Below, one piece after another: positions 10,215 to 33,894 of a stretch of DNA of 44,033 nt. Numbering within the stretch: the stretch's first letter is position 1; every line of letters starts with the position of its first letter. This DNA comes from Sulfolobales archaeon (GTDB lineage Archaea; Thermoproteota; Thermoprotei_A; Sulfolobales; NBVN01), in the NCBI GenBank assembly GCA_038841535.1, contig JAWBTQ010000010.1, positions 1-44,033 of the forward strand, read 5' to 3'. Under the pieces are notes generated by a model that saw nothing but the letters and a program-made list of their open reading frames with translations, did no database searches and had not been told where the DNA came from. A program made the translations under genes and the position numbers.

Positions 10215-11447
10215 TCAGCTCGAGCTCTTTAGCTTTAGGCCAACGAGCTTAGTTATTAGAATAGTGCATGCGTTATCTCCTGATACGTTAATAGCTGTTC
10301 TTAGAGCATCTGCTATAGGGTCTATAACCATCATTATACCGACTCCCTCTAATGGAAGCCCGAGCGTCCCTAAGACGAATGCGAGCATTATCGTCCCTCC
10401 ACCAGGTATGGCTGCTGTCGCTACAGACCCTATGACAGCTGAGGTTACAGCCAGACCTATGTGTACTGGCGTAAGTGCTATCCCAAAGAGCTGAGCTACA
10501 AAGATGGCTGAGAGAGCTTGGTATAGAGCTGTCCCGTCCATGTTCGCTGTAGCACCTATGGGGAGAGTTATCTGGAACACTTCATCGGGTACCCCCATCC
10601 TTCTAGCTGCCTCCATGTTGTAGGGTAGCGTAACGGCTGAAGATCTCGTGGTGAAGGCTATTAGGAACGGTGTGGACTGGATCTTGAAGTACTTCAGTGG
10701 GCTAAGGCCTCCGGTTAGTACTATGATGCTGTAGACAACGAAGAAGTGTATGAAGGTAAAGCTATACTGAGCTAGCAGGAACTTGCCGTAAGCTCCAAGC
10801 ATCTGCGGGCCGTAGACTGCTATGAGCCAGGCAGCGTAAGCGAATATAGCTACTGGTGCGTAGTACATTATTACTCTAACCATAGTTATCATAGTGTTTG
10901 ATGCCAGTCTTAGGAATGAGTATATCTTCCTACCTTCTTCACCCAGTAGTACGACGGCTACACCTAGAATTATGGCGAATATTATCATAGTCATAGCCCC
11001 ACCGACGGCTAGGAGGGCACTGAAGTCGGTCTGGAAGAAGCTTAAGAGTATGTCAACAGATGAGGGAGGCTTCGGAGGAGTGTAGCCAGCCGGAGGCTGC
11101 AGCCCAATACCAACACCTGGCTGAAACACCTGTCCAGCTGCTACGCCTAGGTAAGCTGCTAGAGCAGATGTAGCTATGTAGAGCACGAGCATCCACATTA
11201 GCACTAGACCGAGCTTACGCAAGTCCGCCATAGACGCAACAGCAGCAGATATAGTGAAGAATATAAGTGGCGGTATGACGATACGTATCAACCTCACGAA
11301 GACGTCTCCTAACGCCTTAAGCCACGTAGCAACATCGGATCTAGTAGCATCCGGAAGACCCAAGAGAGCAAAACCCAGCACTAAACCGATAACGAAGCCT
11401 ATAGCAATAGCAATAAGAAGCTTTACTCCAGGTCCTTTAACAGACAT
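10215..11447 (-). CDS. Dicarboxylate/amino acid:cation symporter (DAACS, GltP/GltPh-like)
   Basis: TRSSAVTLP, GATANMDGTALY, RTAINVSGD motifs; multiple TM segments. Confidence 0.92.
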   Translation of the reverse strand: MSVKGPGVKLLIAIAIGFVIGLVLGFALLGLPDATRSDVATWLKALGDVFVRLIRIVIPPLIFFTISAAVASMADLRKLGLVLMWMLVLYIATSALAAYLGVAAGQVFQPGVGIGLQPPAGYTPPKPPSSVDILLSFFQTDFSALLAVGGAMTMIIFAIILGVAVVLLGEEGRKIYSFLRLASNTMITMVRVIMYYAPVAIFAYAAWLIAVYGPQMLGAYGKFLLAQYSFTFIHFFVVYSIIVLTGGLSPLKYFKIQSTPFLIAFTTRSSAVTLPYNMEAARRMGVPDEVFQITLPIGATANMDGTALYQALSAIFVAQLFGIALTPVHIGLAVTSAVIGSVATAAIPGGGTIMLAFVLGTLGLPLEGVGIMMVIDPIADALRTAINVSGDNACTILITKLVGLKLKSSS

Positions 11448-15194: not shown

Positions 15195-17240
15195 TTGCGC
15201 TGGGTAGAAGCGCTCAATAGAGCCAGGTTCCTACTGCCGGCTTCTGCCTTACTCGCACTATTCTTAGTCGCTAGGTCTGCGGACGGTGGGAGTCTTGCTA
15301 TGCGCGTAGCCTACGACTACGGTGTGTGGTACTCCACTATTGTTGTCACAGTGGGTGTGTTACTCGATCTTAGGGCTCTAGGCTGGACTTATAGCTATTG
15401 CTCTACACTCTTACTGAGTCTGCTTAGCGCTCTAGCAGTGGTGATCGGGAGAGTCTCTTCACTAGCCATTAATTGTACTCTTTATCTACCATACGATGTG
15501 ATGCCCCTTTTTGGGTCTCGCTACACGAGCGAGAGTTTCCTCATTTCTCTTGCGTTGGCTTCGGTTGGTGTTTCTCTATCTCTAGTCTCTCTCTCGATAC
15601 ACTCGGCTCTAGGTAGACCCCTTGTATTTAGAGAAGGGAGGCCTGCGAATGCGGTGATAGCAAGTGCCTGGAACCGGCTCAGGGCAGCTTTCTCGATCAC
15701 GAACCTGTACCTACCAACCTCCTTCCTGCTCGGCTTCATACTAAGATTCATCCCGGAGGTCATCTGGTGGCCATGGCATATAGGTTGGGATACCGTTGAG
15801 TACGTAGCTCACTTAGAGGACTTCATGGTCAGGCTTAATCCGCTCGCTAGCTACTACTGGATGGGTGGGTTGAGGAACATCCCACCTATGTTGAACCTCA
15901 TCGCATTAGTCCCTGCGTACGCCTTTGGAGCCTGGGCTGTGTTTAAGGTGTACCCAGCAGTAGCCTACGGCCTTCTCTGTCTCTCCTCAGCTCTACTAGC
16001 TAGGAGGGTTTTTCGCGTTAGTGGCTGGGGAGCTTTCCTGACTTCAGCTATAACAGCTCTCTACGTCCTCAACTTGAGGATCTCATGGGACTACCAGAGG
16101 CAGTTGTTGGGCTCAGTCTTCATGCTCCTCTCGCTAGCGGTTCTCGATGGACCCGGGAGATGGGGGGCTAGGAGGGCTGTTGCCGCAGCTACTCTACTGG
16201 TTTGCTCGGCTCTAAGCCACGAAGTCACTGGGTTTTTCGCTGCTATAGCGTCTCTCGCTTTCCTACTGAAGTCAGCCCTCGATAAAGAGCCGCGAGGTGC
16301 TTTAACTGGCTCTATAGCTTTAGCAGCCTCGGTGGCTCTAGAGCTGTGGTACTGGGGTGTGCCCTTCATGGAGGTCCCAGGTGTTGGTACTCTACCTGCT
16401 GGCTTAGTCTCATACTTTGATGTAGATGCATCAGAGGTCATTAGCTACTTATTCGCTGGATTCGGGGCCGTACTCCCCCTAGCTCTACTTTCCCTCCTAG
16501 AGCGAGACTCTAGGTGTACCTATTGCGGGATAGCTCTAGCTTCACTCTTTCTGGCAGGTCTATCACCACTTCTAGCACCCTATACTTCGGTAGCCGTTTG
16601 GTATAGGTTCATGATAGGAGCAGCACCAATAGCTTCAACACTAGCAGGTGCTTGGGTAGCCAAGTCCTCGGCTGGGTGGAGGTTCCAGCTAGCCTACATT
16701 ACCCTGCTCATGGTTCTAGCGTTTCCCTTTGCCTACACGGTCTTCGGAGCGACTAAGTATGCATACTCCATGAGGGAGTTCCCTCTGTTGGGGCTCACAC
16801 CACTACCCAATGACCAGAAGTACTTAGAGGACCTAGCGGAAGTAGCTGAAGTAGTGAAAAGCTTAGACCCCGGTATTGCGGTAGTAGCTCCAGACTGGGT
16901 AGCTAGGTGGGTCCACCTATCTAAGAGAAACCCCTCACCCAGTGAGCTAGTGTGGGTCTGGCCACGCTTAAACAGCACTATAGACTCCGTAGTGAGAGAG
17001 CTCGAACTCGGTAAAGCATACCTCATCACACTACTCCAGCTAAAGAACTCCACTGACCTCGCGGTAGTAGAAGTCTGGAGTGGGAAAGTCCTCTACCTAT
17101 ACTACGTGGAGACTAAGGCCAGCCCACCAAATCTTAAAGCACTCCAGGTGCTTCCCCCACCTATGAAGAAGCACCTAATTACGCATATCTCTACCTTCTT
17201 TTATCCCGATAACGTAGCTACATTAATGGCAATAGAGTAA
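15195..17240 (+). CDS. Polytopic membrane protein, probable GT-C fold glycosyltransferase
   Basis: Many TM helices; LRFIPE...GWDTVEY loop after a TM and RISWDYQRQLLG, typical of archaeal GT-C-like proteins. Confidence 0.6.
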   Translation: MRWVEALNRARFLLPASALLALFLVARSADGGSLAMRVAYDYGVWYSTIVVTVGVLLDLRALGWTYSYCSTLLLSLLSALAVVIGRVSSLAINCTLYLPYDVMPLFGSRYTSESFLISLALASVGVSLSLVSLSIHSALGRPLVFREGRPANAVIASAWNRLRAAFSITNLYLPTSFLLGFILRFIPEVIWWPWHIGWDTVEYVAHLEDFMVRLNPLASYYWMGGLRNIPPMLNLIALVPAYAFGAWAVFKVYPAVAYGLLCLSSALLARRVFRVSGWGAFLTSAITALYVLNLRISWDYQRQLLGSVFMLLSLAVLDGPGRWGARRAVAAATLLVCSALSHEVTGFFAAIASLAFLLKSALDKEPRGALTGSIALAASVALELWYWGVPFMEVPGVGTLPAGLVSYFDVDASEVISYLFAGFGAVLPLALLSLLERDSRCTYCGIALASLFLAGLSPLLAPYTSVAVWYRFMIGAAPIASTLAGAWVAKSSAGWRFQLAYITLLMVLAFPFAYTVFGATKYAYSMREFPLLGLTPLPNDQKYLEDLAEVAEVVKSLDPGIAVVAPDWVARWVHLSKRNPSPSELVWVWPRLNSTIDSVVRELELGKAYLITLLQLKNSTDLAVVEVWSGKVLYLYYVETKASPPNLKALQVLPPPMKKHLITHISTFFYPDNVATLMAIE

Positions 17241-17298: not shown

Positions 17299-18903
17299 CT
17301 AGCTTAGCTTGCGTAAGACCGAGCCAGCTCTAACCCCAGTAACACTACCGTTTTCTACTACGAGAGATCCGTTTACTAACACGTAGTCTATTCCTTCAGG
17401 TAGTAGCGTGGGCTCCTCGAACGTAGCTTTATCCGCTATCCTCTCTAGGTCGAATACGACTATATCCGCTCTAAACCCTGGTGCTACATACCCTCGGTCT
17501 CCTAGTCTGAACTTCTCTGCCGGCATAGAGGACATCTTTCTTACCGCCTCCTCGAGGCTTAGTATTCCCAGCTCCTTTACGTACCTCTTTATCACCTTTG
17601 GGAAGGTTCCAAAGAACCTGGGATGAGGCTTCCCCTTAGGTGGCATTATCCAGGAATCCGACCCGACCATGCTTAGAGGGCTCTTCAGGACCTCGATTAC
17701 GTCCTCCTCCCTCATTACGTGGATCACCATTGTAGACCTAGCTTCATCTCTGAGTATTATATCGAACAGCGCCTCATATGGGTTCACTCCCCACATTTTG
17801 CTTATTTCTGCTATGCTTTTTCCCTCACACTCCTTGCACTTTTCGGAGTAAGATACCACTACTCCCTCCCAACCTGCGAGCTTCGCGAAGTTTTCCCACG
17901 TAGCTATCTCGGTTTCCATGAAGTCCTTGATCTTCTTGCGGATGTCCGGGTCCTTTAGCCTTGAGAGTAAGGCGTCTACTCCGCCTTCGTGGACCCACCT
18001 AGGTAGGCAGGCAGTAAGCATGGTCATGCCAGCAGTGTACGGGTAGACGTCGCAGTTTACCTCGACACCTACTGACCTAGCTTCAGCCATAAGCTTGAGG
18101 GTCTCTTTAACCTTACCCCAATTGTCTCTACCTGCCGCTTTATGGTGACTTACCTGCACTGGAACTCCGGCGGTTCTCCCCACTATTATAGCCTCTCTAA
18201 CAGCATCAACCAAGGTATAGGACTCGCCCCTAATATGTGAAGAGTATACACCTCCGTACTCAGAGGCTACCTTTGCTAGCTCCACTAATTCCTCAGTGGT
18301 AGAGAAACTTCCGGGAGGATATATTAGACCTGTTGAAAACCCGAATGCTCCTGCTTCAAGAGACTCCTTGAGCATGCTCTTCATAGCTTCTAACTCTTCG
18401 GTTGTAGGGGTTCTAGCCTCAAAACCCATGGCAGCTATTCTAAGAGCTCCGTGACCAACTAGAGGGACCACGTTGACTGCTGGTCTAGCCTTCTCTAGTT
18501 GCTGGAGATACTCGCTGTAGGAAGTCCAAGCTATTTCAACTGGTAGAGGCCCTAGAGTGGACCAGTATCTCTCCAGCAGGTTCTTAGCCTCCCTTGAAAC
18601 GGGTGCGGCCGAAAATCCGCAGTTTCCCACAACAATCGTGGTAACTCCTTGGAGTAGGGCACAGGTAGCATCTGGGTATGCCATTATGGAGAGATCTGAG
18701 TGGTTATGCGAGTCTATAAACCCTGGAGCTACGAACTTGTCACTAGCGTTTATCACAACATCGGCTTGTGGATTCTTGATGTAGCCCACTTTAACTATTC
18801 TACCGTCTTTAACTCCCACATCCGCACGGACCCAGGGAGACCCCGCACCAGTTAGGACCTTTCCCTCCTTTATTACTATATCGTATAGAACCATACTAGC
18901 CAC
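17299..18903 (-). CDS. N-acyl-D-amino-acid deacylase (D-aminoacylase) family amidohydrolase
   Basis: APGFIDSHNHSD, GNCG, GFSTGLIYPPG, SHHKA, DVYPY, GSD, HPRFFGTFP. Confidence 0.92.
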   Translation of the reverse strand: MASMVLYDIVIKEGKVLTGAGSPWVRADVGVKDGRIVKVGYIKNPQADVVINASDKFVAPGFIDSHNHSDLSIMAYPDATCALLQGVTTIVVGNCGFSAAPVSREAKNLLERYWSTLGPLPVEIAWTSYSEYLQQLEKARPAVNVVPLVGHGALRIAAMGFEARTPTTEELEAMKSMLKESLEAGAFGFSTGLIYPPGSFSTTEELVELAKVASEYGGVYSSHIRGESYTLVDAVREAIIVGRTAGVPVQVSHHKAAGRDNWGKVKETLKLMAEARSVGVEVNCDVYPYTAGMTMLTACLPRWVHEGGVDALLSRLKDPDIRKKIKDFMETEIATWENFAKLAGWEGVVVSYSEKCKECEGKSIAEISKMWGVNPYEALFDIILRDEARSTMVIHVMREEDVIEVLKSPLSMVGSDSWIMPPKGKPHPRFFGTFPKVIKRYVKELGILSLEEAVRKMSSMPAEKFRLGDRGYVAPGFRADIVVFDLERIADKATFEEPTLLPEGIDYVLVNGSLVVENGSVTGVRAGSVLRKLS

Positions 18904-20422
18904 TCTCAGGTGGAGTGGATCCCCAGAAGATTTGGATAGATCTTCTCGAAGGAGGGGGTGTAATATAAGTAACCACTAGGAAGACTACGAGAGAGAACAG
19001 CATACCGGGTATAACAGGGTCTGCACCAGCAAAGAGTGTAGCAGATATAGGCACTACTTTTAGCTTATCTAAAGCATAAACCACTAGCCCGGCCACCATT
19101 GACAGTATCGCTCCGTACCTGTTGGCTCTACGCCAGTATAGCCCGAAAATTATAGGCCAAAATAGCGCTGACATGGTTCCCCCTATAGCAAGTATTATGA
19201 TGTACTCTAAAGCCGGGGGTGCCGCAATAGCGAAAAGAAATGACAGAGCTCCTACTATCAGGGTAAACCAGAAGGTAGCTTTCTTTTGATGCTCAGGAGT
19301 AACATCCGGTCTGAAGAGAAGGTAGATATGTCTAAGTAGTGCTGAGCTCATTACCATGATCATGGCAGCTATAGTTGATTGTGCTGCCGAAATAACGCCT
19401 GCGTAAACTATACCGCCGAGTCCTGCGGGAACCATGGTTATAGCTAGTACGGGATTTATGTGGTCTGGAATCGATAGCTTTGGATAGTATAACTTCCCCA
19501 CGAGAGCGACCCATATCCCATAGGTCCAGAAAGTCACTATTGGTATGCCTATGTATATAGCTCTTTTCATGGCCTTTACGCTCTTATACGCTATCGCGGC
19601 CATTAGACCATGCGGTAGTGCTAGTAGACCTAAGTTAAATATTATCCATTGCGAGAATACCCAGGCAATTCCAGGTGGAGTCCTAAATACGTTCATGAAG
19701 GGTTCACCAGCTGTATTTATTAGGGCTTCGTTGATTGCGGTCAGACTCCCGTAGTCAGCTATAGCCCTGCTCCAAACTCCTGCTATTAGGAGGGCATAGC
19801 ATGCCGTCATGAAGACGCCCTGAACGAGTAGAGCTAGGCCGACGCCTCTAATACCTCCTATTGTAGCATAGAATATCGTTACTATTGCTGAGAGAGCTAA
19901 TGCGATGTAGTAGGGCCAGCCGGTCATGATTTCGAATACTCTTGCCGAGCCAACAAACTGGACGGAACAGTAGGGTATTAAGAATATTACGACGATCAAA
20001 GCGTAAATAAGTGCTACTAACTTGCTCCTATCGTATCTCTCGTAGAGAACATCGCCTAAGCTTATGGCCCCAATCCTTCTAGCAACTATTCCGAGCTTTT
20101 TGCCTAAGCCGTAGAGTATGTAGAAGTTCATGTATATTTGAACTCCCATCAAGGCTGCCCACGGCATACCTAAAGACCAAGCTAATCCAGGTCCACCAAC
20201 AAAGGTTCCAACACTACATAGACCCGCAGCAACTATGAAAGCAACGATAGCTGCCCCTAGCCCTCTCCCCGCTACGTAGAACTCCTCAACGTATCTATCT
20301 ATAGCAGTCTTACCTAAAATCCTTCTTGCGTAAATTCCTAGTATAGTGATAGCTGTGAGATATATTGCGAACACAGTAGCTACAGATATTCTCTCTTCAA
20401 AGGTTATCGGAATCTCGCTCAC
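18896..20422 (-). CDS. Sodium:solute symporter (PanF-like)
   Basis: EFYVAGRGLG, GTFVGGPG, GGIRGV, SAAQST; about 13 TM segments. Confidence 0.88.
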   Translation of the reverse strand: MSEIPITFEERISVATVFAIYLTAITILGIYARRILGKTAIDRYVEEFYVAGRGLGAAIVAFIVAAGLCSVGTFVGGPGLAWSLGMPWAALMGVQIYMNFYILYGLGKKLGIVARRIGAISLGDVLYERYDRSKLVALIYALIVVIFLIPYCSVQFVGSARVFEIMTGWPYYIALALSAIVTIFYATIGGIRGVGLALLVQGVFMTACYALLIAGVWSRAIADYGSLTAINEALINTAGEPFMNVFRTPPGIAWVFSQWIIFNLGLLALPHGLMAAIAYKSVKAMKRAIYIGIPIVTFWTYGIWVALVGKLYYPKLSIPDHINPVLAITMVPAGLGGIVYAGVISAAQSTIAAMIMVMSSALLRHIYLLFRPDVTPEHQKKATFWFTLIVGALSFLFAIAAPPALEYIIILAIGGTMSALFWPIIFGLYWRRANRYGAILSMVAGLVVYALDKLKVVPISATLFAGADPVIPGMLFSLVVFLVVTYITPPPSRRSIQIFWGSTPPESG

Positions 20423-21250: not shown

Positions 21251-21869
21251 GGTCTGTAACTTAATGAAGTACTTAACACTTTTGAGTTAAGTAGGAGTAC
21301 CTACCTCGGGAAGAACTTATGATGATAAAGCAGTAGATACGAAGACTCTGCTTTATTTGTGAGGTCACGAGCAACGATCTCTTTATTAAAACAAGTCACT
21401 TACTTAAAGAGAGAGCTGTAGTCAACTCTAGAAAGCCCCGAGGCAACCTATGGGCACGAAGCAAGCTGAGATCGCTACCTCGCCTCGGGATTATTGAAGC
21501 ATATGCTGTCCTCCAAGATCATTGAGCAGAAGAATTCAAAGCTTTTTCCCTCATGAGCTCTGAAGAAGGCAGACCTGGAAATAAACCATTTTGGTAATCG
21601 GTAGAAATAACGAGTACCGGAATTCTCTGTAATGCTACTACAGGGTCTTAGTTCGGGAGCTACTGAGATAACTCTGGTAATCCATTCTAAAATAATTCCG
21701 AGGCTATATGAGGCTTTGAGTAAGGACTTGAAGGTCGCTGTTTAATGACCCTGTAAAAGAGTCTTAAATGATTTTGCACACCGCAGTAAATTACCGTTCG
21801 TAGTTAATTGGGTAACAACTTGTCTTCACCGATTTAAATATTACTTATTATATTAGGAAGCTCGTAGAT

Positions 21870-22172
21870 TTGGTGCGCGCTTTGAAGTGTGTAGATAGGT
21901 TAATCGACTACCTAGGAGCTTCGATAAGGGTCACTATTGTGACCTCTAGTGAGTCGGTGTGTGGAGAAGTACGAGATGTGGGAGACCCGCAAGAAATCGC
22001 AGGGATCGTGAGAAGGCATGGTGGGTGTCGGATAACGTCAGAGGATCCTCTGAAGGTGGTCTCCGCAGACGATGAAATAGAAGTAACTGCAGAACCCGAA
22101 AACCTTCTCGCGAGAGCCTATCTCGGTATAGCTGTCGAGAAGCTTAAGAGGCTCTGCGAATCCATAGATTAA
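21870..22172 (+). CDS. Hypothetical protein
   Basis: 100-aa ORF after AT-rich promoter-like TTTAAATA; no recognised motif. Confidence 0.65.
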   Translation: MVRALKCVDRLIDYLGASIRVTIVTSSESVCGEVRDVGDPQEIAGIVRRHGGCRITSEDPLKVVSADDEIEVTAEPENLLARAYLGIAVEKLKRLCESID

Positions 22173-22275
22173 ACAATACTGAAGCAGCTAGTATATGCTA
22201 GTACAGCACTAGGGCTTATTTTCGGAGATCGAATAAGATCCGACCCCCGGGAAGGGCCGTTAATACCCGGAATAT

Positions 22276-25137
22276 GTGGGGATAGTTGTTCGCACCATAT
22301 ATCCGGTAATAATGACTTTTTCCAGCATAAAAATTTATTTTAGTTTCTATCGAAACTGTATGGGGTGTATCTTCATGCTTTCGCGATCTAATTTAATGGT
22401 TATACTGTTAGTAGTATCTATCTTATCGTCTTGTGCTACAGCCCTAGCTCAGAGTGCTTCTACTACGAAGGGTCCTAGAGCTGAGACTCTTACATATGTT
22501 GGTGTGACTACGACGGATAAGGGTATTAAGGGTGTTGAGACAGGAGAGTTTGACGCATTCATGTGGGAAGTACTCCCGGACGACCTTGAAAAAGCTGGTG
22601 CTGATGTAAGCAAGCTAAGGCTAATACCTGCGCTTAGGTTCTTCGATGTTTTAGATATAAACGCGTATAGCGACCCCAGCGAGATGGGTGTTTGCGGTTT
22701 AGCCACGAGGCCCCGAGATAAGGTCGTTGTGTTTAACCCGTTTGCCATACGGGAGATAAGGTTCCAGCTAAACAACTTGATCAATAGAAAGTACATCAGC
22801 AACGAGCTCCTGAAGGGTGGTGGAGAACCCGCCTTCACCTACGTTAGCATTAGCCACCCTGCGTGGAGATACATAAAGGACGTTGCGGACATGCTCAGTT
22901 TGAGGGAGGAAGGCAACGAGCTACTAGCTCTGCAGAAGATTGGGGAGGCCATGCTAAACGCTTCTAAGTGTGCTCAGAAATTCGGTTACTCCATAGCTGG
23001 CGAGAGAGACCCTACGACCGGTAGGGATGTCTGGACTCTCACGAGACCAGATGGTTCTAAGGAGCCGATAAGGATAGTCCTCCTAATAAGGATAGAGGAC
23101 GAGAGGAGACTAATAGGAGACTATCTAGCCAGCCAGCTAGAGAAAGCGGGATTCCTCGTCGAGAGGAAATATATCGAGAGAGCTCAATTCAGACCCTTAG
23201 TTAGGTCGGCGGAGCCTAGGAACTTAGACTGGCACATCTACACCCATGGAGACACCATGCTAAGGTCGGTATGGATACACGAGGAAGTCGGCTGGTACTC
23301 ATCAGAATTTGCCTCCCTACCTGCTACAGGAGGCCTGTGGGAGTATACAGCAGAACACGCTAAAGCGCTCGGAGACCTCGTTCAGGAGAAGCTAGAGGCG
23401 ATAGCTAGGGAGCTCTACAGAGGACAAGTTAAAGACTTAGAGGACTACTGGAACAAGGTGAGAGAAGGGACCTACTTGGGAATATACCAAAGCTTGAGAG
23501 TATTTATCATAGGCATCAGGAACTTCTATGTTGTTAGCCCTAGGGTTAAGGACATGGTTTACAGCCCAGTCTTTGGAATAACCATTGAGTGGCCGTGGAG
23601 AACAGCCTCAACTCCCGACTCCAAGATAAAGGTGGCTCTATACGCCTCTACAGGGAGCCTCTTCCTCTATGAGTGGAACCCGATATCCGGTGTTGGCGGT
23701 GTCTATGGAAGCTACATCTGGTACTATGTCCGCGACTATGCGTGGCTCAGGCACCCATCCACCCTAGAGCCTATACCTGTTAGAGCTACCTGGAGAGTAA
23801 CACAAGGGGATGTAAACGTACCCACCACAGCCGTTATGTACGATCCAGCTAAGCACTCCTGGGTCAGCGTCCCAGAGGGTACGAAGGCCTCCTACGTCAT
23901 CGACATCAACTTTAAGCTCGGCAACCACCATGACGGATCTCCACAGACCCTACTAGACATACTGACGAACTTTGCTTGGTACGTTGAGTGGGCCTTTAAG
24001 TCCGGTGATGACGACATCTGGTATCACCCGAACATAGAGTCCGACAAGTACATAGCTGAGGATGTGGCAGGAATAGAGATCATAAACTCTACATCTATTA
24101 GAGTCTACGGGAACTACGGACTCTTCTACAGCCTTGATGAAACCGCAACTTACTACCTCGACTACCTGTGGCCTTCCTGGAACCCGCTCCTTAGGCTAGC
24201 CTTCGAGTACGTAGTCCTCTACAAGGGACCTGCGAGTGGAGCTAAATACGGTTGGCTAACAGGCGAAGGTGAGAGAACCCTAGACGCCATGAACCCCAAC
24301 CACGTGGGTGACGTAGCTGAAGCCCTCAGAACCATTGGTCGGGGAGGTTACTCTCCACCACACCTCGCTAGTACAGCTAAAATGCTAGAAGAAAAAGGTG
24401 TCAGAGTTCAAGACTTAGCTAAAGCTACAGAAACGCTAGCAAAGTTTATTACTGAGCATAAGCACATGGCAGTAAGCAATGGTCCGTACTTCATAGACAA
24501 ATACGTACCTGAGCAAATGTACATAGAGCTTAAGGCGTTTAGAGATCCGACATACCCATTCACTCCTGACTACTGGCTAAAGGCATTCGAAGTGTCTCAA
24601 ATTAAGGTTGCTGGAGTAATTAAGGCTCCAACAATTTTGGTAGTAGGCTATAGTGCGGAAGTCGAAGTACCGATACTTAAGTACGTAATATTCCCAGACG
24701 AGGGTACTAAGGAGGCGACAGATGTTAACGCCGAGCTCGTTGTTCTCGGAGCTAAGGATGAGGTGCTGGCCTCGGTAGCAGGTAAGGTCAAGGAGGTAGG
24801 TCCACCAACTGTATGGAAATTCGAGCTAGGACCCAGTATAACAAACAAGCTCTCAGGGCTTAAAACCGTGACTATCGAGGTTAGGTTCTGGAGGAGTCCC
24901 GGTTTCTACGATGTTGTGGAGAGGTTTACCGTCGAGGTCTTAAGCGTGGAGACTCCGACACCTACAGTAACAGTCAAGACAGTAACTAGTGTCGTAACGA
25001 GCGCTGTTACGGTGACTGGAGTTTCTACTACTACTGTCGAAGTCTCACCACTTGTGACGCCGGTCGGTGCTGGGTTAGCTGTGGTGGCGTTGATTATCGG
25101 AATCCTGATTGGGGCGTTAGTTATTAGGAGGAAGTAG
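22276..25137 (+). CDS. Peptide ABC transporter substrate-binding protein (likely start about 22375), Thr-rich linker and C-terminal TM anchor
   Basis: Signal peptide, NPFAIREIRFQLN..INR, SNGPYFID, Thr/Val-rich stalk followed by TM and RRK. Confidence 0.9.
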   Translation: MGIVVRTIYPVIMTFSSIKIYFSFYRNCMGCIFMLSRSNLMVILLVVSILSSCATALAQSASTTKGPRAETLTYVGVTTTDKGIKGVETGEFDAFMWEVLPDDLEKAGADVSKLRLIPALRFFDVLDINAYSDPSEMGVCGLATRPRDKVVVFNPFAIREIRFQLNNLINRKYISNELLKGGGEPAFTYVSISHPAWRYIKDVADMLSLREEGNELLALQKIGEAMLNASKCAQKFGYSIAGERDPTTGRDVWTLTRPDGSKEPIRIVLLIRIEDERRLIGDYLASQLEKAGFLVERKYIERAQFRPLVRSAEPRNLDWHIYTHGDTMLRSVWIHEEVGWYSSEFASLPATGGLWEYTAEHAKALGDLVQEKLEAIARELYRGQVKDLEDYWNKVREGTYLGIYQSLRVFIIGIRNFYVVSPRVKDMVYSPVFGITIEWPWRTASTPDSKIKVALYASTGSLFLYEWNPISGVGGVYGSYIWYYVRDYAWLRHPSTLEPIPVRATWRVTQGDVNVPTTAVMYDPAKHSWVSVPEGTKASYVIDINFKLGNHHDGSPQTLLDILTNFAWYVEWAFKSGDDDIWYHPNIESDKYIAEDVAGIEIINSTSIRVYGNYGLFYSLDETATYYLDYLWPSWNPLLRLAFEYVVLYKGPASGAKYGWLTGEGERTLDAMNPNHVGDVAEALRTIGRGGYSPPHLASTAKMLEEKGVRVQDLAKATETLAKFITEHKHMAVSNGPYFIDKYVPEQMYIELKAFRDPTYPFTPDYWLKAFEVSQIKVAGVIKAPTILVVGYSAEVEVPILKYVIFPDEGTKEATDVNAELVVLGAKDEVLASVAGKVKEVGPPTVWKFELGPSITNKLSGLKTVTIEVRFWRSPGFYDVVERFTVEVLSVETPTPTVTVKTVTSVVTSAVTVTGVSTTTVEVSPLVTPVGAGLAVVALIIGILIGALVIRRK

Positions 25138-25151
25138 TAGGCTGTTTCCGT

Positions 25152-26216
25152 ATGTCAAGCACAGTCAGGTTTTTTGCTTCTAACCTTGTTAATGCTTTTC
25201 TAGTTGTATTCCTCACAGTCCTCATAGCCTCTATAGCATTTAACTTCGTACACGAGAAAGAGTCCTGGGGTAGGGTATACGAGACCGTCGAATCCGAGGT
25301 CAGGAGGTTCATCATCGAGAATCCTAGAGCGGCTCCTGAAGACATAGAGAACTTTAAACGCTATAGAGAGAGCTACTGGATCAGCTTCTACGGCTTAGAC
25401 CAGCCTGTTGCTTATAGAATCTTAGTAGCTACCTACAAGACCCTAACGCTGGATTTTGGAGACGCTAGAATACTATATACGGCTTATGGGCACACAAAGG
25501 ATGTCAGGTCGATAGTGCTGTCGGCAATGGGTAGGACAGCCCTCCTATTCACTACTGCTACCCTCCTCAACATAGCTTTTGGCATACTACTCGGTGTTCT
25601 TATAGCATCTAAGGCCGGCTCTACGCTAGATAAGGTGAGTGGGATCCTCGCTATGATTACTAACGCTATGCCCCTCTACTGGTTCGGGGCTATAATGATA
25701 TGGTTCTTCGCGTACAGGCTCAACTTGTTTCCTGCAGCATCTTGGAGACCCATACCACCCTACGTTGCTGAGAACCCCATAGAGCTCGTAAAGTGGTTCG
25801 CTTGGCATATGTTCATCCCCATAGTCTCGATGTTCATGCTGGGAGTCTTCGGCTGGGCTTGGAGCATTAGGGCAGTAGTAGTTGAAAAGTACTCAGAAGA
25901 CTTCGTCATGGTTCTCAGGGCTAAGGGGCTGCCCGAAAGGTACATAAGGTATAAGCATGTACTACGCGCAGCTGCACCACCAGTCGTCACTATGGCAACA
26001 CTATCTATAACTGGGTCTCTCTTTGGGGCTATAGTCAGTGAAGTCCTCTTCCAGTGGCCCGGAATGGGGATGCTATACTATACGGCACTTAGAAACAGTG
26101 ACACCATCGTTGTTCTAGCAGACACCTACGCCTTCGTAGTTCTCTTCGTAGCCGCTAAGCTCATACTTGACCTAGTTTACGGCCTCCTAGACCCTAGGAT
26201 AAGGATTAAGAGGTGA
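25152..26216 (+). CDS. Peptide ABC transporter permease (DppB/OppB-like)
   Basis: YGLDQP, EDFVMVLRAKGL EAA loop, YGLLDPRIR. Confidence 0.92.
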   Translation: MSSTVRFFASNLVNAFLVVFLTVLIASIAFNFVHEKESWGRVYETVESEVRRFIIENPRAAPEDIENFKRYRESYWISFYGLDQPVAYRILVATYKTLTLDFGDARILYTAYGHTKDVRSIVLSAMGRTALLFTTATLLNIAFGILLGVLIASKAGSTLDKVSGILAMITNAMPLYWFGAIMIWFFAYRLNLFPAASWRPIPPYVAENPIELVKWFAWHMFIPIVSMFMLGVFGWAWSIRAVVVEKYSEDFVMVLRAKGLPERYIRYKHVLRAAAPPVVTMATLSITGSLFGAIVSEVLFQWPGMGMLYYTALRNSDTIVVLADTYAFVVLFVAAKLILDLVYGLLDPRIRIKR

Positions 26217-26220
26217 ACTC

Positions 26221-27798
26221 ATGTCACGAAACACTGAAACCCCCAGATACCTATCTCGGTATCACCTCCTAAGGACCCTAGCTAGAGACAGAATGTTCGT
26301 TACAGGCCTCCTACTTCTGTCCCTCTTAACCTTAATGGCAGTAGCAGGCTATGCCTGGGTCCCAGAGGACGCTAAAACAAGCTGGTACTACAACGTTAGG
26401 TGGACTTTGAACCCGAAGCTAGTTCCCCCTTGTTGGGTTAACTACCTCACTCAGGAAAGTAGGACACCTACTATCAATCTGACCTATACAGAGGCTAGTG
26501 AGTACTGGCGTGTTAAAGCTGAAGAAATCTGGCAGGTTAGACAGAGAGAGTTGGTCTCAATGGGGATAACCAACGAGAGCGTATTGAGTAAGCTAAGGAA
26601 CGAAGTTTATGAGAGAACTAGGCAGGAGCTCGAAGGTAGGGGATTAAGCTACTCATTCGATTACCACTACTCATGGGTCATTCCACCTCAAGACGTTGCC
26701 CTAGTTATTAAAAGCCTCAGTCGAGATAGAGTAGCAAACATAACCGCTATTATGGCTAGACCTGACGGCGTTCAGGTGAGGTTCGTTCTCGCCAGCAGGG
26801 TAGAGCTCTACAGGGGTGAAGAGAGAGTGCTCAAGGTGAGCTTTTCTAAAGACTTTGCTGAGAAGCTAGTTAGGGTTTATCTAGCTGCTAGGGTGGATCC
26901 TGAGACTCTCAGGGTGTTAAGTGACTATGTAAGCTACGGTCTTAGGTCACCAGTCGAGATATTTTTCTATGGAGAGCTAGGCTCGGGTGGTAGGGTAGTC
27001 TTCGCCAACCCGACGGAGGGGGAGTACTGGGTTCGGATTGACGCAGTTTTTTCTGAGATAGTGAAAGCTGAAGATATCGACGTTAAGCTGAGGATCCTTG
27101 GAAGTTGCTACGGAGTTCTTGGCACAGATGACGTAGGTAGAGACAACTTCTGGACTCTCCTTGCGGGTTCTGGTGTAGCATTACTAATAGGTCTCCCTTA
27201 TGCGGTACTTTCTAGGCTTACGGGCCTTGTGTATGGAGCTGTGAGCGGCTTTTACGGCGGAACTCCCGTAGATATCGTGATGCAGAGGATCTGCGAGATC
27301 GTTTATTCCATGCCATTTCTGCCGTTCATAGTAATGATATCATACGTCTTGAGGGAAACCACGGGCGCTCAAGTCGGGATAGCGCAGATAATAGGCCTTC
27401 TCCTTATTTTCGGCTGGCCTGGTGTAGCAATAATATCTAGAAGCATGGCTCTCAGCATACGGGAAGAACTGTATGTAGAGTCAGCAATAGCTATTGGGGC
27501 CACTAAGTCTAGGATAATTTTAAAGTACATAGTTCCTCAGCTGATGCCCTATTTCTTTGCCTCAGTTATGCTGGCTACTCCGGGCGCCATACTAACCGAG
27601 GTGTTTCTCAGTGTGTTAGGATTAACTGACCCAAACCTTCCCTCTTGGGGTAAGATGATTAGTGGTGCTCAACTAACTGTTCACGCTTGGTGGTGGATAG
27701 TACCTCCAGGGATAGCGATAACATTAACGGGACTAGCTTTCATGTTCCTAGGGTATTCCATAGAGAACGCGACTAACCCCAGGAGGAGGAGATTATGA
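26221..27798 (+). CDS. Peptide ABC transporter permease (DppC/OppC-like) with large extracellular insertion
   Basis: LGTDDVGRD, YVESAIAIGA EAA loop, PSWGKMI, WWWIVPPG, NPR. Confidence 0.92.
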   Translation: MSRNTETPRYLSRYHLLRTLARDRMFVTGLLLLSLLTLMAVAGYAWVPEDAKTSWYYNVRWTLNPKLVPPCWVNYLTQESRTPTINLTYTEASEYWRVKAEEIWQVRQRELVSMGITNESVLSKLRNEVYERTRQELEGRGLSYSFDYHYSWVIPPQDVALVIKSLSRDRVANITAIMARPDGVQVRFVLASRVELYRGEERVLKVSFSKDFAEKLVRVYLAARVDPETLRVLSDYVSYGLRSPVEIFFYGELGSGGRVVFANPTEGEYWVRIDAVFSEIVKAEDIDVKLRILGSCYGVLGTDDVGRDNFWTLLAGSGVALLIGLPYAVLSRLTGLVYGAVSGFYGGTPVDIVMQRICEIVYSMPFLPFIVMISYVLRETTGAQVGIAQIIGLLLIFGWPGVAIISRSMALSIREELYVESAIAIGATKSRIILKYIVPQLMPYFFASVMLATPGAILTEVFLSVLGLTDPNLPSWGKMISGAQLTVHAWWWIVPPGIAITLTGLAFMFLGYSIENATNPRRRRL

Positions 27799-29084
27799 GG
27801 GTCGATAGAGGTGTTGTAGTGATGCTGATGGCTGTCGCAATATTGTCAGCAGCCGCAGCTTACGGAATCTCATCAATGGTTAGAACAACAGAAGTAGTCA
27901 CGATTACGGAGAAACTGCCTCAGTATGTAACAGTACTGACTACCCTAACGACAATAGATAGAACTACCGTAACTGTCACGAGTACTCAAGTAGTTAAGGA
28001 GACTACTGTAACTACTGCGACTATCACTACAGTAGCGACCGTTAGGGTCTCACCTCCAGTATCCCCTCTGGGAACTCTCGTGATAATGGGTGGTAGAACG
28101 TTCGACGAAGCTTTTCTAGAGGTGCTTAGAGCTACGGGTAAAGAGAAGCCTAGAGTAGGTGTAATACCTACTGCGAGTTCTACCCCTGAGGAAACCGGTC
28201 GGGAATACGTAGACATGATCAAAGGCTACGGTGCTGAAGGAGTTCTAATAGACATAACTGAGCGGAATTGCGCAAAAACGGCGTACGAACAGCAATACGT
28301 GGAGCTTGTAAAGTCTCTGGACGCAGTCTTCTTTACGGGTGGAGACCAAAACAGGATAACTAAGTGCTTAGTACCGGGTGGCAGCCCTACCCCCATCTTA
28401 GAGGCCCTCTGGAACCTGTACTTACGCGGTAGTGTAATATCCGGCAATAGTGCTGGTGCGGCAATCATGAGCGACCCAATGATCGGGGGTGGTATTGACG
28501 AGAGAGTTATTATAACTCGAGGTTTAGGGTTCCTAATGTACGGCCAGGTGATAGTGGACCAACACTTTCTCGCACGTGGCAGAGTCATCAGGCTATTAGA
28601 GGCGCTAGCTCAAACAAGTACTCGCCTAGGTGTAGGCATAGATGAGGGAGCTGCGCTAGTATGCTATGGGAACCATACCTGCAGGGTGATAGGTTCAGCA
28701 CCGGTTGTAGTATTTGTTTATGAGGGAAGCAACGGAACTCACTATATTTATAGACTCAACTACCTCACTCCTGGCGACTCTATTAACTTGAAGACGCTTA
28801 GGGTAGACATTGGACCGAATAAGAGAGCTGTCTCAATTTCGGGAGACTCAACCACGAGTACCGATGTGGATGTAAAAACACAGAACGGGCTTAGTCTGAT
28901 AATAAGCTTACTGACTAGAAATAGAGAAGTTAGTATTAGAGCGTTATCTGAAAGCAGGAAATTCAGCTACCAATTTACGTTGGCTAGGACAGGTAAAACT
29001 GAGATCTACGAGACAGGGTTTTACGACCCGGTCCGGTATACAGCTATAGAGATTCTGCTTTACATCAGCAAGGTAGGGCTTTAA
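27795..29084 (+). CDS. Membrane-anchored extracellular cyanophycinase-like serine peptidase (peptidase S51 family)
   Basis: N-terminal TM plus Thr-rich stalk; LVIMGG, IPTAS, FFTGGDQ, GNSAGAA, VDQHFLARGRVIRL, GIDE. Confidence 0.88.
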   Translation: MRVDRGVVVMLMAVAILSAAAAYGISSMVRTTEVVTITEKLPQYVTVLTTLTTIDRTTVTVTSTQVVKETTVTTATITTVATVRVSPPVSPLGTLVIMGGRTFDEAFLEVLRATGKEKPRVGVIPTASSTPEETGREYVDMIKGYGAEGVLIDITERNCAKTAYEQQYVELVKSLDAVFFTGGDQNRITKCLVPGGSPTPILEALWNLYLRGSVISGNSAGAAIMSDPMIGGGIDERVIITRGLGFLMYGQVIVDQHFLARGRVIRLLEALAQTSTRLGVGIDEGAALVCYGNHTCRVIGSAPVVVFVYEGSNGTHYIYRLNYLTPGDSINLKTLRVDIGPNKRAVSISGDSTTSTDVDVKTQNGLSLIISLLTRNREVSIRALSESRKFSYQFTLARTGKTEIYETGFYDPVRYTAIEILLYISKVGL

Positions 29085-29421
29085 TCTATCCTTACTTCTA
29101 AATATTCTAATTCATTGTTCTATTTCCGTGAGTTCTTGAGTTTATAACCGTCAAAAGGCTTAGTTATAGCAAGCTACGCACAGTGAAATTCGAGTGAGCT
29201 CTCGCCCGGTTTTCGCGGGACAACAGCTAGAATTACTAGGTAGTAAGAACCTCTGTGAAGTCCTGAAAACATTTTTCAAGACTCTCGGGCATTTGAGAGT
29301 CTTAGTTTAGTCTTGCGAGCATATGCGGTAACTTAATTGGGTTACACCCCCGCTTCTTCAGTAAGGACGTAGGATTTGTTTCCACAGGTTCTGGGGTTAA
29401 ATGTTGTTGGTTGTCTAGATC

Positions 29422-32922: not shown

Positions 32923-33894
32923 GTGGCTCAAAGAGATGAGTACCTAGTATTCGTAGCTTTAGGGGGAAACGCATTTCAGAGTATAGGTGATATAGGGACT
33001 CCAGAAGACTACTGGAGAAACGCCTTCACGGCTGCTGAGGTTGTAGTGAGCATCGTTGAGGAAGGATTTAGGGTTGTAGTAACACACGGGAACGGTCCCC
33101 AAGTCGGGATAGTGAGCGAGTGGATGGAGAACTTGAAGTATAAGATCCCACCTCAGACTCTCGATATAGCCGGAGCGATGACTCAGGGGTGGTTGGGCTA
33201 CCTACTCACTCAAGCAATTCACAACACTCTTGCTGATAGAGGGCTCCTCGGAAGGGTCAAGGGAGCTGTAGCTATAGTAAACAGGGTGGCGGTCAGGGAC
33301 AATGACCAGGCGTGGAGTAATCCAACGAAGTTTGTTGGGGGTTGGTATACGGATGAGTTAGAAATAGAGAGGTTGTCGAAAGAAAAAGGATGGATATTCA
33401 AGAGAGACCCTCGAGGTGGATGGAGGAGGGTAGTCCCCTCACCCGATCCCTACAAGAACGTCGAGTTTGAAGCAGTCAGGACTCTACTAGATAGTGGGTG
33501 GATCGTGGTAGCATCTGGAGGTGGAGGCATTCCAGTAGTTGAAAAAGATGGGGGTAAGCTATTCGGTCGTGAAGCAGTTATCGATAAGGACCTAGCTGGT
33601 GAGGTACTTGCTACAGAACTAGGTGCGGGACACTTCGTCATATTGACTGATATAGATGGAGCTTACTTAAGCTATGGAAGAGAGAGTGCGCAAAAGCTTA
33701 GTAAGGTATCCGTTAGCCAGCTTGAGCAGTATTATAGAGAGGGCCATTTTCCAGCGGGTTCTATGGGGCCTAAGGTTTTAGCGTGCATACGGTTCATAAG
33801 ACATGGTGGGCTGAGGGCAGCTATAGGGCACTTAAGAGAGGGCCATGACGTTGTTAAAGGTTCTAAGGGAACTCAGGTCTTTCCTGATACGTGA
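32923..33894 (+). CDS. arcC: Carbamate kinase
   Basis: ALGGNA, THGNGPQVG, NPTKFVG, RRVVPSP, GGGGIP, AVIDKD, GSMGPK. Confidence 0.95.
   Translation: MAQRDEYLVFVALGGNAFQSIGDIGTPEDYWRNAFTAAEVVVSIVEEGFRVVVTHGNGPQVGIVSEWMENLKYKIPPQTLDIAGAMTQGWLGYLLTQAIHNTLADRGLLGRVKGAVAIVNRVAVRDNDQAWSNPTKFVGGWYTDELEIERLSKEKGWIFKRDPRGGWRRVVPSPDPYKNVEFEAVRTLLDSGWIVVASGGGGIPVVEKDGGKLFGREAVIDKDLAGEVLATELGAGHFVILTDIDGAYLSYGRESAQKLSKVSVSQLEQYYREGHFPAGSMGPKVLACIRFIRHGGLRAAIGHLREGHDVVKGSKGTQVFPDT

Follow-up and report, generated by a model that had tools for sequence, protein, structure and literature searches.

Analysis of a 44,033-nucleotide stretch of DNA from a Sulfolobales archaeon (positions 1–44,033 of contig JAWBTQ010000010.1, assembly GCA_038841535.1; the whole stretch is called the window hereafter) reveals a four-gene operon that encodes a substrate-binding protein (SBP), two permeases of the type found in peptide ATP-binding cassette (ABC) importers (permB and permC) and a peptidase of the S51 family with the features of a cyanophycinase. 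Judging from these sequences, we consider it rather probable that the module serves to scavenge cyanophycin (multi-L-arginyl-poly-L-aspartate) in a hot-spring archaeon of the phylum Thermoproteota. A first-pass annotation of the same DNA had proposed that cyanophycin, or another β-aspartyl polymer, is degraded at the cell surface and the resulting dipeptide imported. Every feature that it described was confirmed in the sequence, and its interpretation is partly supported, each part of it that lends itself to computation having come out in its favour.

The S51 protein and its operon

The operon lies on the plus strand of the window and is composed of the following elements, the gene boundaries being those of the list of open reading frames (ORFs):

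22276–25137, plus strand: SBP gene as the longest ORF, 953 residues, from GTG 22276
22327–22342, plus strand: A/T-rich, TATA-box-like element ATAAAAATTTATTTTA, 33–48 nt upstream of ATG 22375, putative operon promoter
22375–25137, plus strand: SBP gene with its preferred start, 920 residues, Opp/Dpp class
25152–26216, plus strand: permB gene, 354 residues, ABC permease of the OppB/DppB type
26221–27798, plus strand: permC gene, 525 residues, ABC permease of the OppC/DppC type
27781–27798, plus strand: junction of permC and the S51 gene, read from the sequence as the purine-rich AGGAGGAGGAG followed by ATGA
27795–29084, plus strand: S51 peptidase gene, 429 residues, last gene of the operon

The start codon of the S51 gene (ATG, 27795–27797) overlaps the stop codon of permC (TGA, 27796–27798) within the tetranucleotide ATGA at 27795–27798, just as the first-pass annotation had reported, and the purine-rich AGGAGGAGGAG is found 5′ of this start, at 27781–27791. 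Such an operon structure suggests that translation of permC and of the S51 gene is coupled. At the other end of the operon, ATG 22375 is most likely the true start of the SBP and the longest-ORF start at GTG 22276 is probably wrong, because the orthologues of the SBP are 920 residues long, the protein read from ATG 22375 begins with MLSRSNLMVILLVV and has a signal-peptide-like N-terminus, and the A/T-rich element lies upstream of this codon. The stop codon of the S51 gene is followed by a gap of 337 nt and then by an unrelated HAD-family gene and a MatE gene. Transcripts of the operon are present in one metatranscriptomic run, where contigs of an approximately 93% identical strain cover positions 22501–28888; one of these contigs (24864–26811) bridges SBP, permB and permC. 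No RNA contig crosses the junction between permC and the S51 gene by more than 6 nt, and none covers 21800–22307 or 28912–29400, where the DNA runs continue. Depth differs between the genes in these contigs but was not taken as a measure of relative expression. The window itself is recovered nearly whole in hot-spring metagenome runs from five studies, two of which may be the source of the DNA.

Within the S51 protein four successive parts can be distinguished, together with the conserved motifs:

27795–27881, plus strand, residues 1–29: charged N-terminus MRVDRG and a single hydrophobic signal-anchor (Kyte-Doolittle profile)
27882–28058, plus strand, residues 30–88: Thr/Val-rich stalk (composition)
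28059–28724, plus strand, residues 89–310: catalytic domain (TIGR02069, PDB alignments, fold)
28725–29081, plus strand, residues 311–429: C-terminal β-rich extension (AlphaFold2 model, Foldseek)
residues 182–185, 217–221, 255–266 and 281–284: motifs GGDQ, GNSAG, DQHFLARGRVIR and GIDE, respectively

The presence of a cyanophycinase-family domain, as originally annotated, is borne out by profile searches, by matches in the PDB and by the predicted fold. The NCBIfam equivalog model for cyanophycinase, TIGR02069, recognizes the S51 protein with 159.6 bits (E 9.2e-47) against a cut-off of 126.6, the match spanning model positions 19–243 of 250, and the gene is the sole one of this type in the source genome. 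Pfam Peptidase_S51 scores 46.5 bits (cut-off 23.9) and, by these scores, assignment to the S51 family is far beyond chance. Beyond this generic S51 domain, neither Pfam nor NCBIfam (the latter at E ≤ 0.01) yields a match to the PepE family. A sequence search of the PDB returned four matches, three of which are cyanophycinase entries (7uqv, 8.6e-28; 3en0, 1.2e-20; 7uqw, 3.8e-20), the fourth being 6nqc, a ‘cyanophycinase-like exopeptidase’ (2.9e-07). The AlphaFold2 model, which covers residues 85–429 (pLDDT 96.5, pTM 0.94), agrees with this assignment: entries 7uqv, 7uqw and 3en0 occupy Foldseek ranks 1–9 (E 4e-22 to 3e-19, TMt 0.80–0.84, 26–32% identity), whereas PepE structures rank lower (E 2e-12 to 4e-7, 15–17% identity). 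The S51 protein is thus not closer to PepE than to cyanophycinase. Grouping with the PepE dipeptidases, which the first-pass annotation had named as an outcome that would speak against its proposal, did not occur in these comparisons, since cyanophycinase structures outrank those of PepE and the PepE matches are far weaker in Foldseek and in sequence searches alike.

The equivalence of individual residues was derived from alignments to 3en0, 7uqw and 7uqv, with the numbering of Synechocystis CphB as reference; the numbering of 7uqw is native, as shown by the position of its altered residue 132 opposite the Ser of GNSAG. Residues S219, H257 and E284 of the S51 protein align to S132, H174 and E201 of CphB (3en0, 7uqw), and residues Q185, D255, Q256, R261, R263 and R266 align to Q101, D172, Q173, R178, R180 and R183; from the structural work on 3EN0 we take these CphB positions to be the Ser/His/Glu triad and the substrate pocket, respectively. 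The triad motifs GNSAG, DQHF and GIDE, as well as the GDQ and Arg-triplet pattern of the pocket, which had been picked out from the letters of the window, are therefore all present and all aligned to their CphB counterparts. The triad and the six pocket residues are invariant in 9/9 archaeal sequences that carry the anchor (46–87% identical to the window protein). An alignment of 53 family members, bacterial forms included, shows no variation at the Gln, the Ser, the Gln-His pair or the three Arg, and at least 90% of the sequences retain the pocket Asp and the triad Glu.

The transmembrane (TM) anchor and Thr-rich stalk reported earlier were likewise found. The hydrophobic segment within residues 1–29 reaches a Kyte-Doolittle peak of 2.39 and is the only one of its kind in the protein, and the stalk contains 22 Thr and 12 Val in 59 residues, Thr making up 37% of it versus 8% of the rest of the protein. 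A Thr/Val-rich stalk of the same style precedes the C-terminal anchor of the SBP. From these sequence features, the S51 protein appears to have the build of a membrane-tethered ectoenzyme, presumably facing outwards, whose anchor would be left uncleaved and whose stalk is probably glycosylated. Among 106 non-archaeal homologues an N-terminal hydrophobic 15-mer is found in 44 (24/42 of the mid-length forms) and a Thr-rich 40-mer in none, so that export seems to be common in the family but this kind of tether is not. Four Cys residues (C159, C191, C290 and C296) are invariant in the anchored clade. As to the C-terminal extension, its presence was deduced from the difference between the Foldseek TMq of 0.64 and TMt of 0.84; in the model it adds strands, predicted with confidence, and one helix to the CphB core. 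It is absent from the CphB forms of 260–300 residues and common to the bacterial forms of 350–440 residues, to each half of the 700-residue tandem forms and to the archaeal forms of family f38 described below. One further match to the S51 protein, in genome G038 (E 8.6e-5, residues 6–106), covers the anchor and stalk region only and was rejected as compositional.

The importer and the gene content of the source genome

The product of the first gene consists of a signal-like N-terminus, a cluster-C body, a C-terminal β-rich domain, the Thr/Val stalk and a TM anchor ending in RRK, its hydrophobic segments lying within residues 1–28 and 888–920. The match to Pfam SBP_bac_5 is marginal (33 bits versus a cut-off of 32.4). 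Its only sequence relative in the PDB at E ≤ 1 is 7fi3 (3.9e-58), and the AlphaFold2 model (pLDDT 86.9) has the same entry as its top Foldseek match (E 4.2e-23, 24% identity), followed at about 1e-10 by peptide-, nickel- and some sugar-binding proteins of family 5. According to its PDB title, 7fi3 is OppA of Thermococcus kodakaraensis with an endogenous pentapeptide. Since the sole sequence relative and the top fold match are both this peptide-binding OppA, the model favours a peptide as the ligand of the SBP; it has no bearing on β-Asp-Arg. The SBP resembles 7fi3, an archaeal peptide-binding protein, and differs from it in the additional C-terminal β domain, the stalk and the anchor.

Both permeases match Pfam BPD_transp_1, permB with 108 bits and permC with 79.1 bits (residues 335–524); the best NCBIfam models are Opp2B/Opp4B for permB and Opp4C (173.8 bits) for permC, all under their equivalog cut-offs. 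A family-5 SBP, marginal in Pfam as stated, is thus combined with permeases of the OppB/OppC type, which places the system in the Opp/Dpp class. In permC, TM1 (residues ~23–48) is separated from the next TM segment (from ~311) by an extracytoplasmic loop of unusual length, approximately 260 residues (~49–310; 26365–27150), which has no Pfam match and is kept in genome G267 (63% identity over residues 22–523). Two more long permC genes (541 and 543 residues) are present in the source genome, on contigs C1 and C25.

The first-pass annotation had described the operon as encoding a peptide ABC importer. This holds for the SBP and the two permeases but not for the ATPases, no gene for which was detected in the operon or elsewhere in the window. 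In the source genome the oligo_HPY domain was found eight times, corresponding to four DppD/F-type ATPase pairs (contigs C1, C2, C5 and C9), versus 11 Opp-type permease pairs (that of the window and ten identified by tblastn), and only three of the ten others (C2 at 132 kb, C5 and C9) adjoin ATPases. With 11 permease pairs and four ATPase pairs most importers must share ATPases. As sharing is the rule in this genome, the missing ATPase genes are no argument against a working importer. By its gene content the operon must depend on ATPases provided in trans, presumably of the DppD/DppF type. One DppD/DppF pair is an orphan devoid of permeases (G000:C1:81701–83725, L121:1701–3725; G000 denotes the window's genome) and is syntenic with L011:6569–8601 of genome G003; the G003 pair is followed by thiolase/HMG-CoA-synthase-like genes, and the next ORFs of G000 are alike in size and order.

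Two other loci of the source genome resemble the operon in their organization. At G000:C2:136136–138805 (L119) lies the gene of an 889-residue protein, immediately behind a complete Opp-type operon with its SBP, two permeases and two ATPases. The protein has a TM segment at its N-terminus, followed by a short linker rich in Thr, Ser and Glu and by GH18, Amidase_2 and GHL10 domains; the locus is the genome's second example of a ‘tethered hydrolase plus importer’ design. The second locus, G000:C2:68062–73319, is an SBP-permB-permC operon without ATPases whose fourth gene (L115) encodes an M20-family peptidase. This peptidase is probably cytosolic, as it has no obvious signal or TM segment. ATPase-less Opp-class SBP/permease operons paired with a dedicated hydrolase recur in this genome, and the window operon is a clear example of them.

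No cyanophycin synthetase was identified in the source genome, which is 84% complete, the best match to TIGR02068 reaching 29.4 bits against a cut-off of 850. The absence of this enzyme from the search results is the reason why scavenging is preferred to storage as the role of the module. A cyanophycinase with a transporter and no cphA1 is also the gene content expected of a scavenging locus, although at this completeness the absence of cphA1 is not certain.

Conservation of the module and its phylogenetic position

Besides G000, the genomes relevant to the conservation of the module are G002, from the same genus, and G267, from genus g11, all three belonging to family f1. The arrangement SBP-permB-permC-S51 with the ATGA overlap was found in these three genomes (locus L010 in G002) and on the metagenome contig L024. 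G002, with proteins 87–97% identical to those of the window, shows full synteny including the flanks, and the 4-nt overlap is the same in L010 and in L024, which repeats the G002 type. In G267 the SBP, permB, permC and S51 proteins, 68, 78, 63 and 52% identical to those of the window, are encoded in the same order with the same GAGGAGGAGATTATGA junction, whereas the flanks differ and contain no HAD or MatE match. Loss of linkage to the ABC genes was the other outcome that had been named in advance as speaking against the proposal; instead, the linkage, ATGA overlap included, is kept in a second genus within a different genomic context.

The distribution of the genes within the family points in the same direction. 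The SBP was detected at E ≤ 1e-100 in 4/52 family genomes (G000, G002, G267 and G005), and an intact SBP and a close S51 homologue occur in the same three of the 52, that is, with concordant phyletic patterns. The fourth genome, G005 (a sister species, 97% complete), contains a remnant of the SBP only:

L114:5424–6637 (G005:C7): SBP remnant, residues 1–407, frameshifted, in two frames, 81–85% identical

Neither permB, permC nor an S51 gene was found within 20 kb of this remnant, and no S51 match exists in the whole G005 genome, which looks like a recent decay of the module. Taken together, the co-presence of the genes and this remnant indicate that the four genes are retained, or lost, as a single unit. 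Further homologues of the S51 protein (P0007–P0014) are 52–61% identical to it, P0011 being near-identical to the S51 protein of G267. When the lengths of the longest contigs of S51, SBP and permC matches were compared as a sign of shared location, two values coincided, 15233 for P0011 and P0138 and 8791 for the SBP P0130 and the permC P0248, the latter with no S51 match; neither was counted for or against linkage.

Two trees of the catalytic domain were computed, with FastTree (168 rows) and with an IQ-TREE quick search (80 rows, SH-aLRT support, without bootstraps); they do not include characterised CphE, CphI or PepE sequences, and the archaeal rows were flagged for unusual composition. In both, the anchored archaeal S51 sequences form one group (support 100), which falls into the half of the tree that holds the bacterial long single-domain forms and the 700-residue tandem forms. 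This long-form half is separate from the sequences of 266–297 residues that NCBI names cphB and from the 545-residue tandem forms. TIGR02069 matches above cut-off were found in 5/401 genomes of the phylum, four of them in family f38 (4/5 f38 genomes); the 80-row tree places the f38 sequences as the sister group of the anchored clade (SH-aLRT 99). These homologues and a divergent paralogue from G003 are located as follows:

L128:8522–9571, L127:8928–10013 and L129:8905–9957: f38 homologues, above the TIGR02069 cut-off
L011:10249–11475 (G003:C3), plus strand: paralogue P0121, 408 residues, 37–40% identical to the anchored S51 proteins

The f38 proteins (349–361 residues) begin at the catalytic domain, have no anchor or stalk, look cytosolic and carry GGSQ in place of GGDQ; no Opp-type neighbours were found at their loci, where the genes stand alone near genes for Cdc6, THUMP, MBL-fold and H+-PPase proteins. 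P0121 possesses a TM segment but no Thr-rich stalk, and has no Pfam match at E ≤ 0.001. Its Ser and His are kept, and the equivalents of Q101, D172, Q173, R178, R180 and R183 are all replaced (GGFPDR for GGDQNR, VGVHYNLAYAAII for VDQHFLARGRVIR). The gene is not next to permeases; it lies approximately 1.6 kb from the divergently oriented orphan DppD/DppF pair of G003. As P0121 has lost all six pocket residues and the main anchored clade none, the comparison of sequences suggests that the pocket of the main clade is maintained by selection.

The remainder of the window contains several genes that lie near the module but are not assigned to it, namely a GltP/DctA-like sodium:dicarboxylate symporter (10215–11447, minus strand) and an Amidohydro_3 amidohydrolase whose gene overlaps that of a PanF-like sodium/solute symporter (17299–20422, minus strand). 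Positions 2917–9023 (minus strand) encode SMC_N/AAA_23 (Rad50-like), Metallophos (Mre11-like), HerA and NurA proteins, the usual archaeal DNA-end-resection operon, and a 681-residue ORF at 15195–17240 (plus strand) matches nothing in Pfam or NCBIfam. Just upstream of the operon, an ORF of 100 residues (21870–22172, plus strand) likewise matches no family; G002 has an 80% identical counterpart, whereas none was detected in G267.

Proposed cyanophycin scavenging, its alternatives and its implications

Based on these features, the following sequence of events can be proposed. The S51 enzyme, held at the outer face of the membrane by its N-terminal anchor and the Thr-rich, probably glycosylated stalk, would cut extracellular polymer released by lysed bacteria into β-Asp-Arg units or short multiples thereof. 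The co-transcribed and likewise membrane-tethered OppA-type SBP would capture the product and pass it to the OppB/OppC-type permeases, for which ATPases of the DppD/DppF type, encoded at other sites of the genome, would supply the energy. In the cytoplasm, a β-aspartyl peptidase of the IaaA type could then split the dipeptide into Asp and Arg.

Several observations weigh against this scheme. The best PDB match of the S51 protein, both by sequence and by fold (4.3e-22), is 7uqv, an entry titled ‘Pseudobacteroides cellulosolvens pseudo-CphB’, which carries the same motifs in the alignment; conserved motifs may thus be no guarantee of activity on cyanophycin. The closest solved relative of the SBP binds a pentapeptide and not a dipeptide, and ATPase genes are missing in cis. 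IadA was not found in the source genome (best match 22.8 bits versus 331), and no isoaspartyl dipeptidase is clustered with the operon in the window, in a search of which cphZ was not part. A single Asparaginase_2/IaaA-type gene is present on contig C21, with a β-aspartyl-peptidase model as the best NCBIfam match at 166 bits (cut-off 567). As 5/5 of the relatives examined have this family, whether or not they carry the module, the gene is available but, being housekeeping in these relatives, not diagnostic. As to the fate of arginine, no ADI-family arginine deiminase was found in the source genome; an arginase-family gene and an ornithine transcarbamylase are present, together with a carbamate-kinase-like gene 3.8 kb downstream of the operon (32923–33894, plus strand; 328.6 bits with the arcC model, cut-off 358), and no arginine pathway is established by them. 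Moreover, the module is rare, S51 matches at E ≤ 1e-10 being limited to 4/351 genomes of the class, all in family f1 (3/51 besides G000, namely G002, G267 and, with its divergent paralogue, G003), and only two genera support the linkage independently. A metagenome scan with the S51 protein retrieved 79 bacterial loci, 37 of which measure at least 9 kb, and a single locus of archaeal type (L024); Opp-type SBP or permease neighbours, searched with the archaeal queries at E ≤ 1e-8, accompany 0/79 of the bacterial loci, so that the pairing looks specific to this archaeal clade. The RNA contigs, assembled from one study and belonging to a variant strain, provide a weak hint of operon-limited transcription. 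Finally, bacterial scavenging clusters usually include a dipeptidase (PMC10206079), which is lacking in the window operon, and archaeal cyanophycinases, the anchored clade included, are predictions only (PMC9723716).

The main alternative, which we regard as rather unlikely, is that the cyanophycinase-like enzyme acts on another extracellular aspartyl substrate, such as a different β-aspartyl or isopeptide polymer or heat-damaged isoaspartyl peptides, and that the importer takes up the resulting peptides. The pseudo-CphB title of 7uqv despite identical motifs, the pentapeptide in the nearest solved relative of the SBP and the position of the anchored clade, joined to the long-form half of the tree by a long stem and apart from the NCBI cphB sequences, are all in keeping with it. 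We know of no characterised sequence in this half of the tree. Specificity has also shifted within the group, as P0121 illustrates by the replacement of its six pocket residues, and the S51 family as a whole holds several specificities, represented by PepE, CphB and MccG (PMC9239234). Against this stand the invariance of triad and pocket in the anchored sequences over a wide range of identity, which argues for a pocket of the β-Asp-Arg type, and the score above a curated equivalog cut-off; the qualifier ‘pseudo’, moreover, comes from a PDB title.

It seems improbable that the module is a general oligopeptide importer with a PepE-like aspartyl dipeptidase or exopeptidase at the cell surface, trimming α-Asp-X peptides for bulk nutrition. 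The transporter parts are indeed generic, all of them under the equivalog cut-offs for Opp/Dpp proteins, one among 11 permease pairs of the genome, and the locus with the M20 peptidase as fourth gene combines SBP-permB-permC with a peptidase in the same way; PepE and cyanophycinase also share the S51 fold. Yet the Foldseek matches to PepE remain far behind those to cyanophycinase (~1e-20), no PepE model is found in NCBIfam at the threshold given above, the pocket triplet R-x-R-x-x-R and the D-Q-H residues are kept, and breaking down dipeptides outside the cell would run counter to the purpose of a peptide importer. That the adjacency is incidental, with the S51 protein merely sharing a transcript while having an envelope or other role, is the least likely reading of all: the restriction to two genera and the location of the G003 paralogue and of the cytosolic f38 homologues away from permeases would fit it, but the ATGA overlap and the purine-rich motif are kept between genera despite 52% S51 identity and different flanks, SBP and S51 share one pattern of presence and absence across the family, with one decayed remnant, and RNA contigs cover all four genes.

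Cyanophycin scavenging, the reading preferred here, has counterparts among known systems. The extracellular cyanophycinase CphE of Pseudomonas anguilliseptica is reportedly a secreted, soluble, long-form enzyme (attributed to Obst et al. 2002). CphE resembles the window protein in belonging to the S51 cyanophycinase family, in acting outside the cell on polymer made by others, in a host without cyanophycin synthetase, and in being a long form, in contrast to CphB of about 270 residues; by description, the two differ in that CphE is secreted, in place of the signal-anchor and the Thr-rich stalk of 59 residues found in the window protein. CphB of Synechocystis PCC 6803 (3en0, 7uqw) agrees with the window protein in fold (TMt 0.83, root mean square deviation ~2.5 Å), triad and pocket, but is only 26–27% identical to it, cytosolic, about 270 residues long and devoid of the C-terminal extension. 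CphB is usually clustered with cphA (PMC10206079), whereas no cphA was found in the genome of the window.

In bacteria, the established scavenging route consists of an extracellular cyanophycinase, uptake and cleavage of β-Asp-Arg, and clusters of cyanophycinase, isoaspartyl dipeptidase and transporter genes have been described (PMC10206079, PMC9974463). The ‘cyanophycin utilization locus’ of Ben Hania et al. (cited in PMC10206079) comprises, like the window, a cyanophycinase and a transporter without cphA1, and the aot operon of P. aeruginosa with CphZ (PMC9974463) combines a β-Asp-Arg hydrolase with an ABC importer by the same logic, the use of cyanophycin from the environment. These bacterial clusters usually contain iadA, iaaA or cphZ together with amino-acid-type transporters, whereas the window has an Opp/Dpp-class SBP and permeases, a tethered enzyme and neither ATPases nor a dipeptidase. 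Among archaea, cyanophycinase genes are predicted in Culexarchaeia from hot-spring metagenome-assembled genomes (PMC9723716). The Culexarchaeia and f38 homologues, treated here as two groups, resemble the window protein in being archaeal, geothermal and long-form, and the f38 proteins differ from it in lacking anchor, stalk and Opp-type neighbours.

The first-pass annotation was aware of no such system characterised in Thermoproteota. The novelty is more limited than this suggests, as NCBI already names the anchored orthologues ‘cyanophycinase [Sulfolobales archaeon]’, Culexarchaeia have been predicted to hold the enzyme and bacterial scavenging loci with cyanophycinase and transporter genes are described; neither the tethered architecture nor coupling to Opp-class SBP/permease genes was found in the literature on archaeal or transporter-linked cyanophycinases and on the cyanophycin utilization locus, supplements aside.

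If the enzyme and the SBP behave as proposed, the module would be a source of a thermostable cyanophycinase for the production of β-Asp-Arg dipeptides and of a candidate β-Asp-Arg binding protein, and it points to a substrate on which these uncultured archaea could be selectively enriched. A tentative extension, which we put forward with considerable doubt, is that this small hyperthermophilic Thermoproteota clade degrades cyanophycin, or another β-aspartyl polymer akin to it, by means of a ‘utilisome’ at the cell surface, with enzyme and SBP both tethered on glycosylated Thr-rich stalks and the synthesis of both coupled to that of the permease. It would be the first archaeal cyanophycin-degrading system, and cyanophycin from thermophilic heterotrophic bacteria would then be a significant shared nitrogen and carbon currency in springs too hot for cyanobacteria. 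In a bolder variant, the substrate would be an undescribed polymer and the long-form clade, with its bacterial forms of 350–440 residues and its 700-residue tandem forms, a functionally distinct family. The cytosolic archaeal homologues of f38 and Culexarchaeia leave the path of the polymer to the enzyme unexplained. Should the anchored enzyme be active on cyanophycin, the module would thus represent the first mechanistically coherent archaeal route, leading from cleavage outside the cell through capture and import to a dipeptidase inside.

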